Origin: an uncultured Candidatus Saccharibacteria bacterium
GTDB taxonomy: Bacteria > Patescibacteriota > Minisyncoccia > Portnoybacterales > UBA2143
Reading direction: 5' to 3'
Length of the DNA: 41,294 nucleotides
NCBI GenBank assembly: GCA_964407595.1
Contig: CAYOWE010000001.1
Coordinates: 16,643 to 57,936, forward strand
The position numbers and the translations under genes are program-made. The notes beneath the pieces were generated by a model. That model was given only the letters and a program-made list of their open reading frames with translations. It did not search any database and was not told the DNA's origin. Positions within the stretch are counted from its first letter, which is position 1, and each line of letters starts with the position of its first letter. Below, one piece after another: positions 6,535-34,764 of this stretch.

Positions 6535-6591
6535 GACTATTTTATCGAAATTTATGAGTGTAACGAAATAAATTTCGTTACAAAATTGTCA

Positions 6592-6693
6592 CCCCGCCCT
6601 CTAAGCTGTAACATAATAACAATAATAAAGGTTATTGATAAGTATAATTTACTTTTAACCTTATGCCTTACGGTTAAAGCACAGAGGGCGGGG
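6592..6693 (-). repeat. GC-clamped long hairpin element, copy 1 (rpsQ|rplN spacer)
   Basis: The inverted repeat is ccccgccctct (6592-6602) / agagggcgggg (6683-6693) around an 80-nt AT-rich interior. The interior is homologous to copies 2 to 4. Confidence 0.85.
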
Positions 6694-6726
6694 TAAAGGT
6701 TTGGCAACTAAAAATCCTACGGATTT

Positions 6727-7011
6727 TTAGGCCAAGCCCTTCACTGTCCATTTTTTATCCTTACTTACGGGCCGACATTCTCTAATAATTACCCGGTCAC
6801 CTATTTTAAATTCATTCTTCTCGTCATGCGCTTTATACTTTTTATTAACCCGATATCTTTTTTTATACCGCGGATGTTTTTTTAACCGGGAAACAGAAAC
6901 AACAATGGTTTTATCCATCTTATCACTAATGACCACACCTTTAAGTAGTCGACCTTTTGATTTTCCGCCAGAGGCGGACACGCCTTTGGCAGGTTTTTCC
7001 TCTTTAGTCAT
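6727..7011 (-). CDS. rpsQ: 30S ribosomal protein S17 with short N-terminal extension
   Basis: The 94-aa ORF contains [16 protein letters not shown] and is in operon order. Confidence 0.95.
6961..6993 (-). repeat. Same 33-nt module (encodes [11 protein letters not shown]) in the S17 N-terminal extension
   Basis: The sequence is ttttccgccagaggcggacacgcctttggcagg. Confidence 0.8.
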
Positions 7012-7605: not shown

Positions 7606-7672
7606 ACCAATTTTCTCAACGAGGCAAAGTCGCTTAAGGCGACCGCCCGCCGAGTTGTTAGAAAATTGAGTA

Positions 7673-7771
7673 CCCCGCCCTCTAAGCTATAACCTAGTAA
7701 TAATGAAGGTTATTAATAAGTATAATTTGCTTTTAGCCTTATACCTTGCAGTTAAAGCATAGAGGGCGGGG
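7673..7771 (-). repeat. GC-clamped long hairpin element, copy 2 (rpsC|rplP spacer)
   Basis: The inverted repeat lies at 7673-7683 / 7761-7771. The interior closely matches copy 1. Confidence 0.85.
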
Positions 7772-7827
7772 TTAAGGTTCTGTTACTAAAATTTATTCGC
7801 TATTACTCCAAATTTTAGACAGAATCC

Positions 7828-8478
7828 TTAAAAAACTTCTCCTTTATAAATCCAAACTTTTACGCCGATAGTGCCATAAGTAGTGTAAGCAGTCGCTTGA
7901 GCATAGTCAATATCAGAACGCAAGGTCTGTAAAGGAATTCTCCCCTTCTTTAGCCATTCTCTCCGGGCAATTTCTGCTCCGTTCAATCTTCCTTTAAGCA
8001 TAACTTTTATTCCCTGAACTTCCTTATTCTGCGTAACTTTACTCAAGGTCTGCTTCATTACTCGGCGATAAGGAAAACGTCTTTCTATCTGACTAACCAT
8101 ATCAGCCGCGACAATAGCTGCTTGCGAGCCAATTTGTTTGATTTCTTCGATTTCTAAACGAACTTCGAGATTAGCTGATTCAGGTTTGCATTTTTGAAGA
8201 ATCTTTTTTATTTCCTGTTTTAACTCTTCAGCACCACTGCCGCCTCGACCAATAACTAATCCGGGCCGAGCTGTTTGAATAATAATATTAATAGAATTAG
8301 CCGAGCGTTCTATTTTAATTGAATTAATTCCTGCTTTATCTACCTTTTTCACAATAAACTCCCGCAATTTAACATCTTGCTCTAAAAATTCCTTATACTT
8401 TCTCTTACTAAACCAGCAGGACTTCCAATCAGCCCCTAGGCCTATTCGAAAAGATAATGGATGAACTTTTTGTCCCAT
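7828..8478 (-). CDS. rpsC: 30S ribosomal protein S3
   Basis: The 216-aa ORF begins MGQKVHPLSFRIG and has a KH domain. Confidence 0.97.
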   Translation of the reverse strand: MGQKVHPLSFRIGLGADWKSCWFSKRKYKEFLEQDVKLREFIVKKVDKAGINSIKIERSANSINIIIQTARPGLVIGRGGSGAEELKQEIKKILQKCKPESANLEVRLEIEEIKQIGSQAAIVAADMVSQIERRFPYRRVMKQTLSKVTQNKEVQGIKVMLKGRLNGAEIARREWLKKGRIPLQTLRSDIDYAQATAYTTYGTIGVKVWIYKGEVF

Positions 8479-8485
8479 AATTGTT

Positions 8486-9106
8486 TTAGATACTTTTTCT
8501 CCTAAAATATTTTTTGATATTACCGAAAGTCTGACGGCTAAAAAACCTTTTCTTGGATTGAGAAGTAGTTGGATAAGGCCGGGGCGGCAAGACCGGTTTT
8601 GGTTTGGGTACCGGACCCTTTACTTCTTTTATTCTCTGAATCTCTTCTAATAATTCCGGTTCTTTTTTTTCTTCTTTGCCTTCAACAGTTTTAGCGGAGA
8701 AAGACTTGGCAACTAATGGCTTTTCCTCTTTGGCTGTTCTTGACTCAACTTCCTTAACTTCTTGAGAAACTGATGCTTCTTTTTCATTTAAAATTAAAGT
8801 AATATGACTGGTTCTTTTCATTATCGGCGTCGTCCGACCCATGGCTCGTGGTCGCCATCTTTTTAAAGTTGGCCCACTCTCAACAATAACATTACTGACG
8901 TAAAGATTCTCTTTGACTAAATTTGCTTTGTTTTTAGCATTAGCCACTGCCGAATTAAGCAGCTTTAAAACGGGCTTAGCTGCTTTCTTGGTCAAAAATT
9001 TTAATTGTCTTTCCGCTTCAATTACTGACAAACCCTTAATTAAATCAGTAACTAATCTGATTTTGCGAGATGAAATTCTTAAGTGACTTAATTTAGCCGT
9101 AATCAT
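8486..9106 (-). CDS. rplV: 50S ribosomal protein L22 with long charged/proline-rich C-terminal extension
   Basis: The 206-aa ORF has an L22 core in its first ~110 aa. It is in operon order. Confidence 0.93.
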   Translation of the reverse strand: MITAKLSHLRISSRKIRLVTDLIKGLSVIEAERQLKFLTKKAAKPVLKLLNSAVANAKNKANLVKENLYVSNVIVESGPTLKRWRPRAMGRTTPIMKRTSHITLILNEKEASVSQEVKEVESRTAKEEKPLVAKSFSAKTVEGKEEKKEPELLEEIQRIKEVKGPVPKPKPVLPPRPYPTTSQSKKRFFSRQTFGNIKKYFRRKSI

Positions 9107-10267: not shown

Positions 10268-10771
10268 TTATTTCGGCAATAACTCTATTTTTTCTCCTTT
10301 GGCTAAGGTAACAATCGCTTTTTTAAAACCCTTTTTTAACCCATGACGCCAACCTTCACTGCGACCCAAACGTCTTTTTTTGGGAGCTGAATGGATTAAA
10401 TGAACTTTTTCCACCTTAACGCCATAAAGTGTCTCAATAACCTTTTTAATCTCAACCTTATTGGCCTTGGGAAAGACCTTAAAAACGTATTTATTTTGGT
10501 TAGCTAAAAAATTAGCTTTTTCGGTAATATGCGGCTCTTTAATAATCCGATAGGCCTCTGGTACTTTTTTGCCAACGACTTTTTGGAGCTTTTCTTTCTT
10601 GGATTTCTCATTCTGGTCAGCCTTCTTATTTTCTTTTTTTTCGGGTTTCTTTATTATCTGGACTTTTTCTTTCTCACTAGAAGCGGATCTGCCCACGTCA
10701 GTCCGCTCTTGGCGGATTTGGCTGACTTTGGCAGATTTTATTTTCTTTTTAAATCTATCTAATAAAGCCAT
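10268..10771 (-). CDS. rplW: 50S ribosomal protein L23 with ~70-aa K/E-rich N-terminal extension
   Basis: The 167-aa ORF has an L23 core in its C-terminal ~95 aa (ITEKANFL...VFKV). It is in operon order. Confidence 0.92.
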   Translation of the reverse strand: MALLDRFKKKIKSAKVSQIRQERTDVGRSASSEKEKVQIIKKPEKKENKKADQNEKSKKEKLQKVVGKKVPEAYRIIKEPHITEKANFLANQNKYVFKVFPKANKVEIKKVIETLYGVKVEKVHLIHSAPKKRRLGRSEGWRHGLKKGFKKAIVTLAKGEKIELLPK

Positions 10772-11447: not shown

Positions 11448-12287
11448 TTATTTATTATCCTTAGATTCTCCTTTCTTTTCCTCTTCTTTCTCTTTCTTTT
11501 CTTCTTTGGCTGGCTCTTGCTTTCGGCTGCTTTTTTCTCCAGAGGCACGCTCCATAGGCGCGTCCGTCTTTAATGGAAATTCACCTTTGGCGGATTTCTC
11601 TCCTGCCTTGGCCTCTCTTTGCTTCAAATCAGCTACCAGTTTTTCCTGCCTTTCTTCCTTAACTGCTTCAATTTCTTTAGTCGCGACTATCTCCAAAAGA
11701 GTTCCTTTTTTGCCAGGGATGGCTCCTTTGACCGCTAATAGATTATTTTCCTTATCAATTTGAACTATTTTTAATCCTGAAGTAGTTATTCTCTCGTTAC
11801 CCATCCGACCAGCCATTTTCTTGCCTTTCCAGACCCGTTCAGGAAAAGAGGAACCGATTGAACCAGGCGCCCGTAAACCATGCTTAGTACCATGCGAAGC
11901 AGGAAAACCAGAAAAACCATGTCTTTTAACTACTCCCTGAAATCCTTTTCCTTTAGAAGTTCCCGCTACTTTGACTATCTCCCCTTGATTGAATATAGAA
12001 ACATCAATTTGTTCGCCAATTTTTAAATGACCATTAGGAAATTCTCTTAAATAACGAAATCCTTTTTTAAAACCAGCTTTTTTAAAATGACCCTTTTGCG
12101 GCTTTTTAACTTTCTTATCCTTAATCTCTTCAAAACCAATTTGCACGGCTGAATAGCCATCTTTTTCTTTATTCTTTAGTTGAACAACCGAACAGGGCCC
12201 TGCTTCAATTAAGGTAACTGGAACAACCTGACTTTTTTCATCAAAGAGCTGTGACATACCTAATTTTTTACCCAAAATAAATTTCAT
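11448..12287 (-). CDS. rplC: 50S ribosomal protein L3 with K/E-rich C-terminal extension
   Basis: The ORF track extends to 12374 from a TTG codon. The L3 homology starts at MKFILGKKLGMSQ (ATG at 12285-12287), and the upstream 29 aa overlap a hairpin. Confidence 0.9.
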   Translation of the reverse strand: MKFILGKKLGMSQLFDEKSQVVPVTLIEAGPCSVVQLKNKEKDGYSAVQIGFEEIKDKKVKKPQKGHFKKAGFKKGFRYLREFPNGHLKIGEQIDVSIFNQGEIVKVAGTSKGKGFQGVVKRHGFSGFPASHGTKHGLRAPGSIGSSFPERVWKGKKMAGRMGNERITTSGLKIVQIDKENNLLAVKGAIPGKKGTLLEIVATKEIEAVKEERQEKLVADLKQREAKAGEKSAKGEFPLKTDAPMERASGEKSSRKQEPAKEEKKEKEEEKKGESKDNK

Positions 12288-12814: not shown

Positions 12815-12856
12815 TTTTATCCAAATACCTGCCACCGGGCAGGTATTTGGATAAAA
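12815..12856. repeat. 19-bp perfect hairpin immediately after the tuf stop codon
   Basis: The sequence reads tttatccaaatacctgcc accg ggcaggtatttggataaa. No U-run follows on the transcribed strand. Confidence 0.8.
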
Positions 12857-12859
12857 TGT

Positions 12860-14491: not shown

Positions 14492-14554
14492 GCTAATTTT
14501 CTCAACGAGACAAGCAAGCTTGCTTGCGACATCGAGTTGTTAGAAAATCGAGCA

Positions 14555-14653
14555 CCCAGCCCTCTAAGCTGTAATTTAAATAATAACAGATTACTATAAA
14601 TATGTAAATTACTTTTTGGCTCTATGTTTTAATCTAAGACATAGAGGGCTGGG
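14555..14653 (-). repeat. GC-clamped long hairpin element, copy 3 (fusA|small ORF spacer)
   Basis: The inverted repeat is cccagccctct (14555-14565) / agagggctggg (14643-14653). The flanks are identical to those of copy 2. Confidence 0.8.
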
Positions 14654-14683
14654 TAATGCTTCAGTCACCAAAAATCCGGTGTC

Positions 14684-16826: not shown

Positions 16827-17315
16827 CTACCAGGCAAAATGAGCAAAGGCCTTATTAGCTTCGGCCATCCGATGGATGTCCTGTTTTTTCTTAACCGCTG
16901 TCCCGGTATTTTTGGAAGCGTCCAGCAATTCAGCAGCCAGTTTTTGAGCCATAGGTTTGCCTTTTTTAGCCCGCGCCGCCTGAATCAACCAGCGTATAGC
17001 TAAGGTAAGTCGTCTCTCGCCGCGCACTTCCCGAGGCACCTGATAATGAGCTCCGCCAATTCGACGCGACCTCACCTCAACTAAAGGAGAAGCATTTTTA
17101 ATCGCCTGGTCAAATATTTCCAAAGGGTCTTTGTCTTTTCCATCAGAGGCGGATCCAGTTGTTTTCTCTAATATTTCAAAAGCGCCATAAAACACTTTTT
17201 GGGCAACCGATTTTTTACCGTCTTTCATCAGATAATTAATAAATTGAGCCACTAAAGTATTATTATACCGAGGGTCAGGATCAATTATTCTTTTAAATTT
17301 TTTCTTTCTACGCAT
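16827..17315 (-). CDS. rpsG: 30S ribosomal protein S7
   Basis: S7 homology starts at MRRKKKFKRIIDPDPRYNN (ATG at 17313-17315). The longer ORF in the track would overlap rpsL. Confidence 0.93.
   Translation of the reverse strand: MRRKKKFKRIIDPDPRYNNTLVAQFINYLMKDGKKSVAQKVFYGAFEILEKTTGSASDGKDKDPLEIFDQAIKNASPLVEVRSRRIGGAHYQVPREVRGERRLTLAIRWLIQAARAKKGKPMAQKLAAELLDASKNTGTAVKKKQDIHRMAEANKAFAHFAW
17136..17158 (-). repeat. Partial copy of the module (encodes GSASDGK) inside S7
   Basis: The sequence is ttttccatcagaggcggatccag. Confidence 0.6.
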
Positions 17316-17325
17316 AAAATTTATT

Positions 17326-17862
17326 TTATTTACTCTCAGCTGGTTTAGTCTCCTCTTTTCCGCCTGAGGCGGATCCGCCTTTGGCGGGAATTTCTTCCGA
17401 GCCAACCGGAGCAGCTTCTGCTTCAGCAGCTTCGCTGGCTATTTTCTTTTCCTGGCCCGGCTTCTTAGTTCCATAGCGGCTTCTTTTTTGTTTACGATTT
17501 TCTACCCCCTCGCTATCTAAAACACCCCTGACAATATGGTAACGCACCCCGGGTAAGTCCTTAACCCGACCACCCCGCAGTAGAACTACTGAATGCTCCT
17601 GAAGATTATGACCAATGCCGGGAATGTAGGCAGTTACTTCCATGCCATTAGTTAATCTGACCCGAGCTACTTTACGCAAGGCGGAATTTGGTTTCTTGGG
17701 AGTAATTGTTTTGACACTTAGACAAACGCCTCGTTTAAAAGGTGAAGGAGACTTTTTCGGTTTGTTCTTAAGCAAATTAAAATTTCGCCAAAGAGCCGGC
17801 GCCTTTGGTTTTTTCCTCGTAATTTTTCTCGGTTTTTTAACTAATTGATGAATGGTCGGCAT
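17326..17862 (-). CDS. rpsL: 30S ribosomal protein S12 with ~40-aa C-terminal extension
   Basis: The 178-aa ORF begins [10 protein letters not shown] and contains [16 protein letters not shown]. Confidence 0.96.
17356..17388 (-). repeat. GC-rich 33-nt in-frame module (encodes [11 protein letters not shown]) in the S12 C-terminal extension
   Basis: The sequence is ttttccgcctgaggcggatccgcctttggcggg, and 29 of 33 nt are identical to 6961-6993. Confidence 0.8.
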
Positions 17863-18040: not shown

Positions 18041-18070
18041 AAACAAAAATACCGCTAAAATCAGCGGTAT
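18041..18070 (-). terminator. Rho-independent terminator after tRNA-His (T-runs on both strands)
   Basis: The stem pairs ataccgct with agcggtat (18049-18056 / 18063-18070). It is followed on the minus strand by ttttgttt. Confidence 0.6.
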
Positions 18071-18078
18071 TTTTCTTG

Positions 18079-21376: not shown

Positions 21377-21643
21377 CTATTTGACAATTACCTTGTCTTG
21401 CAAGTCATGTAAATCTTTGATAATGCCTGGAATTTCTTGTTCTGCTCTGGACGAAGACAAAAGAGAGACAATTAGTTCATCTAAGATCTGGAAAAGTTCT
21501 TTTGGACTAAGTTGGTCATTATCTACCTTAATTCTGGTTTCTGTCAATTTCTGTCGCGCCTGATTAAGCATTTGAATCAGCAAGTCAATACTCGCCTGGG
21601 ATTCGTTTATACCCTTGATTAATTTTTTCTTGTAGTTCACCAT
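21377..21643 (-). CDS. Hypothetical helical protein
   Basis: The 88-aa ORF is preceded by a strong SD (aaggagggg). Confidence 0.5.
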   Translation of the reverse strand: MVNYKKKLIKGINESQASIDLLIQMLNQARQKLTETRIKVDNDQLSPKELFQILDELIVSLLSSSRAEQEIPGIIKDLHDLQDKVIVK

Positions 21644-34551: not shown

Positions 34552-34621
34552 GCCAATGTTGTCTAAATTTATAAGCTGAGCTCAATGCGAAGCGTAATGA
34601 ATTTAGCCACAACATTGAGCA

Positions 34622-34719
34622 CCCCGCCCTCTATGCTTTAACTGTAAGGCATAGGGTTAAAAGTAATTTATATTATCAATAACCTTAATAATTGCTAGGT
34701 TACAACTTAGAGGGCGGGG
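34622..34719 (+). repeat. GC-clamped long hairpin element, copy 4 (leader of the dksA-like gene), core inverted
   Basis: The inverted repeat lies at 34622-34632 / 34709-34719. The interior matches the reverse complement of copies 1 and 2. Confidence 0.85.
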
Positions 34720-34764
34720 TAAGGGTTTTCTAACTCCGCATTACTGCGTAGAGAAAGCCCTTTA

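Follow-up and report, generated by a model that had tools for sequence, protein, structure and literature searches.

Short palindromic repeats that lie inside genes are known from several groups of organisms. The Rickettsia palindromic elements (RPEs), which are ~100-150 bp long and restricted to Rickettsiales, are found as in-frame palindromic repeats in unrelated, essential and non-coding genes, at tolerated surface positions. Cyanobacteria harbor ultra-short (8-27 nt) palindromic repeats, the short dispersed repeats (SDRs) and HIP1, which also occur in coding regions and can nest. Here, we describe a 30-nt double hairpin that sits in frame in the gene for ribosomal protein S12 of an uncultured bacterium of the Candidate Phyla Radiation (CPR), within a 41,294-nt stretch of contig CAYOWE010000001.1 (the window; coordinates without a locus label refer to it, and L numbers denote the loci and contigs fetched for comparison). 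The module probably belongs to a family of very short palindromic insertion elements that are non-autonomous (probability about 0.8) and may be mobilised in trans, and it is among the smallest apparently mobile DNA elements seen.

Closest in architecture and behavior are the mitochondrial double-hairpin elements of Allomyces, the yeast mitochondrial GC clusters and the sponge repetitive hairpin elements, i.e. short GC-rich units of two adjacent hairpins in AT-rich genomes (PMC2800124). These units occur in intergenic regions as well as in protein and RNA genes, differ between close relatives, lack flanking duplications and are reported to be retained in transcripts (PMC2800124). The two adjacent GC-rich hairpins, the dispersal, the intragenic copies and the lack of a flanking duplication are all shared by the present element. 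In contrast, the mitochondrial elements are confined to fungal and sponge organelle genomes and have family-specific sequences, whereas the present element is bacterial, resides on contigs with bacterial ribosomal operons and combines nearly the same sequence across many phyla with a fixed 15+15-nt format and a strong reading-frame filter.

An earlier note on this DNA, made from the sequence alone, had likened the module to RPEs. The likeness holds for the in-frame insertion of a palindromic repeat into unrelated open reading frames (ORFs), but the element is not a member of that family: it is of the wrong size (30 nt, or 60-63 nt in compound copies) and occurs in the wrong taxa (CPR, Omnitrophota, phyla of the Planctomycetes-Verrucomicrobia-Chlamydiae (PVC) group and others), a distinction based on the description of RPEs rather than on their sequence. 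The SDRs and HIP1 are likewise set apart by description, as they belong to other taxa and have other sequences. With the repetitive extragenic palindromes (REPs) and REPINs, which are associated with the transposases called RAYTs, the element shares a GC-rich imperfect palindrome of 20-40 nt, many dispersed and often paired copies, conservation of the hairpin rather than the sequence within a family, and the lack of a target duplication. However, REPs and REPINs have a GTAG/CGTC head, are predominantly extragenic and species-specific, whereas the present element lacks this head (its flank profile is T-rich 5' and A-rich 3'), lies inside ORFs in ~60% of cases, has a sequence common to many phyla and consists of two directly abutting hairpins. 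Miniature inverted-repeat transposable elements (MITEs) are ~50-500 bp long, derive from insertion sequences (ISs) with matching ends, and feature terminal inverted repeats and a target-site duplication; in contrast, the present element comprises 30 nt, no parent IS was seen in the fetched loci, and pairs of empty and filled sites reveal no duplication. Taken together, the element works like the known ultra-short palindromic families, yet fails a defining feature of each. Literature searches by DNA string, peptide and keyword returned no description of it, only analogies (REP/REPIN, Coxiella MITEs and the mitochondrial hairpin elements); a Minerva preprint was unrelated to the element.

Copies in the window and their empty sites

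The window has a GC content of 38% and carries the str/S10/spc ribosomal-protein gene cluster on its minus strand, as judged from the ORF list and the gene order in same-species contigs. Its host belongs to the Patescibacteria (CPR): named S12 homologues are labelled 'Patescibacteria group' or 'Parcubacteria', and the same-species contigs keep the gene order. The sequences quoted in the earlier note are all present where it had placed them and translate as it had said, with the genes on the minus strand. It had described a 33-nt module in S12, S17, S7 and probably L3. The repeat is real and all four genes hold an insertion, but the inserted unit measures exactly 30 nt (17359-17388 in S12; 6964-6993 in S17), since the extra TTT on the plus strand (AAA on the coding strand) is part of the target A-run, and the list was incomplete, with L23 (10673-10735) as a fifth target. 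The features are as follows:

17326-17862, minus strand: rpsL (S12; PF00164), with the element in an acidic C-terminal extension
17359-17388, minus strand: intact double hairpin in the S12 C-terminal tail; coding strand CCCGCC-AAA-GGCGGA followed by TCCGCC-TCA-GGCGGA, then the target A-run at 17356-17358
6727-7011, minus strand: rpsQ (S17; PF00366), with the element 18 nt past the start codon
6964-6993, minus strand: double hairpin in the S17 N-terminal tail; coding strand CCTGCC-AAA-GGCGTG followed by TCCGCC-TCT-GGCGGA, left hairpin partly decayed
17139-17156, minus strand: 18-nt partial copy in S7; coding strand GGA followed by TCCGCC-TCT-GATGGA, peptide GSASDG
11537-11596, minus strand: 60-nt compound decayed copy in the L3 C-terminal tail; four hairpin-like 15-nt units
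10673-10735, minus strand: 63-nt compound copy in the L23 N-terminal tail; nested long hairpin, then a decayed right hairpin; peptide SAKVSQIRQERTDVGRSASSE
8681-8710, minus strand: in-frame 30-nt insertion AKSFSAKTVE in L22, a possible very decayed copy; ~12/30 identity to the element by eye

Over the original 33 positions, the copies in S12 (17356-17388) and S17 (6961-6993) agree at 29/33 and differ at 4/33, as the earlier note had said. The best chance match to the S12 33-mer in 20 shuffles of the window was 18-21/33, and dinucleotide shuffles of the window gave zero matches within 3 mismatches. Since the window has only 38% GC, composition does not explain the GC-rich codons of the module.

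In S7, whose protein includes ...EKTTGSASDGKDKDP..., the inserted 18 nt correspond to the right hairpin, whose 3' arm has decayed, preceded by the final 3 nt of the left hairpin; they lie in an inter-helix loop where the alignment to Thermotoga S7 (3gty_S) is gapped. The insertion in the L3 C-terminal tail (...EKSAKGEFPLKTDAPMERASGEK... / ...SAKGEFPLKTDAPMERASGEK...) was parsed by eye into TCCGCC-AAA-GGTGAA, TCCATT-AAA-GACGGA, CGCGCC-TAT-GGAGCG and (T)GCC-TCT-GGAG, and folds weakly (z = -1.6). Both the S7 and the L3 insertions are accounted for by decayed or compound copies of the element. The L23 copy combines the nested hairpin TCTGCC..GTCAG..TCCGC-CAAGA-GCGGA..CTGAC..GGCAGA with the decayed right hairpin TCCGCT-TCT-AGTGAG, folds with -27.1 kcal/mol (z = -4.7) and contains a match to TCCGCCNNNGGCGGA at 10702-10716 with 1 mismatch. 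Of the five copies of the window, those in S7, L3 and L23 have decayed, as has the left arm of the one in S17, which argues against a function at these sites. Their positions in tails and in the S7 inter-helix loop suggest that the copies are placed at the protein surface.

The main comparison contig L001 comes from a related species and has the gene order of the window over 20 kb, at ~80% nucleotide identity. Compared with L001, the window displays clean in-frame gains of 30 nt in S12, 18 nt in S7, 60 nt in L3 and 63 nt in L23. The S12 and S7 insertions are missing in the orthologues of L001, L248, L250 and L253, that of L3 in L001, L250 and L253, and that of L23 in L001 and L253; the S12 insertion is also missing in more than 100 other homologues. 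Absence from L001 and further relatives thus indicates that the insertions are derived in the lineage of the window. An exact empty site for S17 is provided by L260 (homologue P0142), which reads ATGACTAAAGAGGAAAA^AAAACCAAAAAG (AAAACC after the ^) as opposed to ATGACTAAAGAGGAAAAA[30 nt]AAATCAAAAGG in the window. The S17 gene of a 90%-identical relative (L261) is filled as well, with a left arm that has decayed differently from that of the window copy, while S17 of L263 contains a three-hairpin expansion and the distant S17 of L262 a solo 15-nt hairpin in frame (EKSASGGKE). The alignment of orthologues that had been proposed in the earlier note as a check accordingly returned discrete indels. 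The L22 insertion is also a gain with respect to L001, with a different insert at the same site in L253; its relation to the family is uncertain.

At six sites (S12, S7, L3, L23, S17 and a tRNA-Leu fragment in L040) AAA(A) immediately follows the insertion, which puts it 3' of TTT(T) on the other strand, and none of the empty/filled pairs at these sites features a target-site duplication. This might be compared with the hairpin-dependent insertion of IS200/IS605-derived palindromic elements on one side of a short conserved target, but the target here is of low complexity and the element nearly symmetric.

Two further length differences in the cluster were observed in frame: a 24-nt insertion in L4 (10934-10957, ACLDESKR), which is missing from L001 and L253, and a 21-nt Lys/Glu expansion in L3 (11491-11511) relative to L001.

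Dispersal, fold and reading frame of the family

Further copies were sought with two scans, one through one genome per GTDB species with the right half TCCGCCTCWGGCGGAAAA as query and one through metagenome contigs with the left half TTCCGCCAAAGGCGGA. They yielded at least 119 and at least 120 loci, respectively, with 123 matches listed in each case, and the flanks of the copies are unrelated throughout the listed loci. In the right-half scan, a second hairpin of 6 bp with a 3-nt loop occupies the 15 nt directly upstream in 72 of the 123 matches listed, 8 more have a left hairpin with an enlarged loop, and ~15 belong to a GTCATGCC...GGCAGA sub-type. In total, ~95 of these 123 matches have a second hairpin immediately on the 5' side. 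In the left-half scan, the second hairpin follows directly downstream in 56 of the 123 matches listed and precedes the match in 0. Counted strictly, the fetched loci (~1 Mb) contain 97 double hairpins versus 0 in shuffled sequence; 20 of them do not contain the ascertained string (~20 per Mb), including two lineage-specific copies in L001. In four lake-water metagenomes that hold the organism, the contig depth over 17355-17391 amounts to 13-125x that of the flanks, and many contigs match 17356-17387 only, with unrelated sequence on both sides. No RNA run turned up among the sequencing runs with the organism. Together with the discrete indels, these dispersed copies bear out the proposal of the earlier note that a short palindromic element has spread into coding sequence.

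Contig depth far above the flanks, and matches near the ends of some loci, might also be expected if the module were an artefact of assembly or sequencing, for instance an adapter, a chimera or a collapsed repeat. A dispersed repeat, however, produces exactly such a depth spike. Moreover, the S12 insertion is identical and in the same frame in the independent assemblies L005-L008, being seen in ENA, JGI and Logan assemblies alike, diverged and decayed copies exist, some of them with compensatory changes, and no match to the element was found in PLSDB plasmids and INPHARED phages, which speaks against vector or plasmid sequence (IMG/VR viral contigs gave 3 matches only, with a 21-nt core pattern). 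The chance of an artefact is therefore negligible.

The hosts are diverse. Among the matches listed, the GTDB records comprise ~54 CPR genomes of many classes, as well as Omnitrophota, Planctomycetota, Verrucomicrobiota/Kiritimatiellota/Lentisphaerota, Elusimicrobiota, Zixibacteria, uncultured Gammaproteobacteria, Bacteroidota/Ignavibacteria and one archaeal metagenome-assembled genome (MAG). Several genomes were matched on two or three contigs, several have multiple exact copies, and the contigs with copies range from 31% to 63% GC. Copies are modestly enriched near tRNA genes. In L045 (3760-4050), three double hairpins with differing stem combinations lie within 300 nt of a single intergenic region beside a tRNA, so copies can cluster. 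In a Lentisphaerales MAG (L040, 600-900), two tandem partial 5'-half copies of tRNA-Leu(CAA) precede one intact tRNA-Leu, and each partial copy contains a double hairpin between C34 and A35 of the anticodon loop.

The family consensus reads (T)TCCGCC-RAA-GGCGGA followed by TCCGCC-TCT-GGCGGA-AAA, i.e. a pair of directly adjoining 15-nt hairpins (GC-rich stem of 6 bp, loop of 3 nt) that add up to 30 nt; the pattern conserved across phyla is YCNGCC-NNN-GGCNGR, twice. The unit is almost symmetric, since each strand presents a purine-loop hairpin followed by a pyrimidine-loop hairpin (AAA/TCT; AGA/TTT on the other strand), and some copies are perfect 36-nt palindromes centered on GGATCC (L104). Flanks are often T-rich 5' and A-rich 3', which lengthens the palindrome. 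In 120 copies ascertained by their right half, 80 cells of the left stem changed on both sides versus 25.8 +/- 4.5 after shuffling, and 0/500 shuffles reached 80. Compensated left stems include TCAGCC/GGCTGA, TCTGCC/GGCAGA, CCAGCC/GGCTGG and TCCACC/GGTGGA, and the right stem varies with the same compensation in copies ascertained by their left half. Where the two stems of a copy are unlike, each still pairs with itself, so the conserved fold consists of two mini-hairpins, and because pairing is kept by compensatory changes, it is a single-stranded fold (ssDNA or RNA) that is conserved. Both 6-bp stems covary, and the two-hairpin fold is under selection. The two tandem mini-hairpins of the earlier note are thus backed by covariation across the family and, for the S12 copy, by DNA energy parameters, whereas RNA parameters favor one long hairpin for a single copy. 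The long hairpin, which is the minimum-energy fold of the consensus and of copies with identical stems, was rejected as it is not backed by covariation. The statement that the module does not look like low-complexity evolution is likewise supported by the discrete indels, the many further copies and the lack of a shared peptide in orthologues.

Conceivably, the double hairpin is a functional cis-acting signal, for example a site bound by a conserved protein, a signal for DNA uptake or segregation, or a hairpin that acts in the stability or processing of RNA, with the coding copies sited where they do the least harm. The strong cross-phylum conservation of pattern and pairing would fit such a role, as would the palindrome-extending flanks, the multiple exact copies in several genomes and the modest enrichment near tRNA genes. 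Yet, every site examined displays presence or absence between close relatives, and 3/5 window copies have decayed stems. A-runs rather than U-runs come after the hairpins, so they are not intrinsic terminators; this candidate was rejected because A-runs follow and T-runs precede the hairpins on the loop-defined strand. The density in unselected sequence is also low (~20 non-ascertained copies per Mb), whereas uptake sequences occur roughly once per kb. Finally, no Rfam family matches the element: at gathering thresholds, the window and 18 loci gave tRNA, rRNA and group I intron only, and a permissive scan around copies gave chance miRNA-like matches only. A cis-acting signal is therefore an unlikely explanation, albeit the least unlikely of the alternatives considered here.

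All six frames of the consensus are free of stop codons, and its length is a multiple of three; one frame on each strand reads FRQRRIRLWRK. In the window, the mechanically called S7 ORF (16827-17405) runs upstream through the S12 element in another frame, the true S7 start being the ATG at ~17315, and it illustrates that the element is open in that frame. Of the double hairpins, 52/87 in the GTDB set and 35/57 in the metagenome set, i.e. ~60%, fall within ORFs that span 150 codons or more. Of these in-ORF copies, 42/52 and 29/35, respectively, use the TCC-starting frame (frame 0; p = 3e-12 and p = 2e-9 versus one third), a bias that is not seen in non-coding copies. The resulting peptide is Ser-Ala-Lys/Arg-Gly-Gly-Ser-Ala-Ser/Phe-Gly-Gly. 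Pfam-confirmed host proteins are topoisomerase I (TopA), Mfd, RpoC (beta'), RpoB (beta), RecJ, glutamine synthetase (GlnA), a DNA methylase, a class I aminoacyl-tRNA synthetase and LepA. In Mfd of a Giovannonibacteria locus (L029), two copies were observed, one of them intact and one decayed inside the helicase core (KFSAIGGSASSGKK).

This reading-frame filter bears on the idea that the RNA loses the element as a mini-intron, or that translation hops over it in a bypass like that of the byps of yeast-relative mitochondria or of T4 gene 60, such that the peptide would be lacking in the proteins. Compact GC-rich hairpins in AT-rich genes, GGA codons that close both hairpins and could serve as take-off and landing sites, and the copy in the anticodon loop in L040 are compatible with it. 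However, a length that is a multiple of three, an open and used frame and a very strong frame bias would be needless if the element were untranslated, and the tRNA copies in L040 are truncated 5' halves beside an intact gene. The analogous mitochondrial double-hairpin elements, moreover, are reported to stay in transcripts (PMC2800124). RNA-level removal thus appears highly improbable.

Similarly improbable is that the module represents a selected peptide of CPR ribosomal-protein extensions, with the DNA likeness as a by-product of ancestry, gene conversion or codon choice, although related peptides do occur in five ribosomal proteins of one operon cluster and Gly/Ser/Ala-rich bits are found in distant S12 tails too. 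The data already contradict this explanation: the peptide is missing from the closest orthologues, the module is also found as DNA between genes and is read elsewhere in other frames (PPKADPPLAE or RQRRIRLWR), the stems covary at the nucleotide level and the GC-rich codons are atypical of a 38% GC genome. The earlier note had named a peptide shared by orthologues without DNA likeness as the finding that would speak for an ancient conserved feature. This is not what was found, since distant S12 tails with similar peptides (GGSASAGG, GGASAKG or APAKGG) carry no palindrome and are not copies of the element at the DNA level.

Proposed origin and mobilisation

The evidence is hence most consistent with a non-autonomous insertion element. 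Its insertion would be blind to the reading frame, and selection would then discard all but those copies that provide small flexible Gly/Ser/Ala linkers at a tolerant loop or tail, which would explain the copies in the S12, S17, L3 and L23 tails and in the S7 loop. After insertion, copies would decay in place, as the copies in S7, L3 and L23 and the left hairpin of the one in S17 suggest, pointing to the lack of a required function at these sites. Mobilisation may occur in trans by an enzyme that recognizes hairpins on single-stranded DNA. The HUH/Y1 enzymes of IS200/IS605 and REP/RAYT systems carry out hairpin-dependent insertion beside a short target without duplication, and a transposase of this RAYT or IS200-IS605 kind would be the best precedent for a candidate mobiliser.

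Trans-mobilisation is the weakest step of this proposal because no such gene is linked to the element. When 4,234 ORFs of ~240 loci were clustered all-against-all, no family exceeded 10 loci, and those that did recur were housekeeping genes. A motif scan for Y1 transposases found none, and the fetched loci contain no cognate RAYT beyond one RAYT-like ORF in ~240 loci (L123), 6 kb from a copy. Nor was an autonomous 'master' copy with a gene between the hairpins detected, only left hairpins with loops of 4-21 nt. Besides the missing linked gene and the solitary RAYT-like ORF, several other points weigh against an insertion element. The case for movement itself is drawn from presence and absence between relatives, and the copy counts come from matched loci rather than being per-genome totals. 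Near-identity across distant phyla and kept pairing could equally mean a host function. Some MAG taxon labels may be wrong, though both AT-rich contigs and contigs of 56-63% GC contain copies.

A weak lead is offered by small GIY-YIG ORFs, 4/6 of which are found no more than ~300 nt from a copy and frequently next to tRNA genes or their fragments; this proximity could simply reflect shared intergenic space. A protein search on this lead returned the query and one relative only. ORFs of this kind (PF01541 type) near copies are located in L128 (5180-5640 and 6540-7100), L077 (6600-6960) and L010 (4440-5130). Those of L128 lie between tRNA genes and tRNA fragments with hairpin insertions, and the GIY-YIG copy of L077 looks frameshifted. 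As a tentative extension, which we regard as possible though rather doubtful, the 30-nt double hairpin, or perhaps the 15-nt single hairpin, might be the substrate of a hairpin-recognizing enzyme that passes horizontally between CPR, Omnitrophota, PVC and further uncultivated lineages, with GIY-YIG proteins as one candidate partner. If so, this would be the smallest known cross-phylum mobile DNA, and Gly/Ser/Ala linkers would be continually written into essential proteins (ribosomal proteins, RpoB, RpoC and TopA), which would make the element a genuine contributor to the lineage-specific insertions and extensions that are typical of the CPR.

If the element has indeed been inserted as proposed, 30 nt would suffice for a dispersed and probably mobile DNA across many phyla that are known nearly only from metagenomes. 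It would provide a concrete mutational origin for insertions and end extensions that are so far unexplained in ribosomal and other core proteins of the CPR, and a natural experiment on which loops and tails of essential proteins tolerate a flexible linker of 10 residues. In practical terms, it would be a nuisance in assembly (breaks and depth spikes) that may mislead alignments of phylogenetic-marker proteins, while its presence or absence could serve as a character for tracking strains and lineages. The strict conservation of structure and sequence makes the hunt for the recognizing enzyme directly testable.

Other repeats and insertions near the ribosomal operons

The spacers between genes of the ribosomal operons hold a second, unrelated repeat family, made up of long-hairpin inserts that measure ~150-220 nt and have ACCCCGCCCTCTAAGC / GCTTAGAGGGCGGGGT in their arms:

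6547-6742, 7609-7827, 14492-14673 and 34600-34735: second long-hairpin repeat family

The three copies in the stretch common with L001 are missing from L001, the region 7606-7830 folds with z = -9, and among the fetched loci the family was found only in same-species contigs. These inserts could be MITE-like elements or structured RNAs.

Two short perfect hairpins that are missing in L001, AAAATACCGCTGATTTTAGCGGTATTTT (18046-18073) beside tRNA-His and ATCCAAATACCTGCCCGGTGGCAGGTATTTGGA (12820-12857) upstream of S10, look like terminators. The window also has a 409-nt insertion relative to L001 (21268-21676) between PHP/PolX-like and VanZ-like genes, with an 88-aa ORF (21377-21643) that has no Pfam match. 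In two related contigs, a HicB/HicA toxin-antitoxin pair is inserted in the str operon, where it separates the S7 gene from that for EF-G (L252, 11024-11545; L253, 1327-1848).

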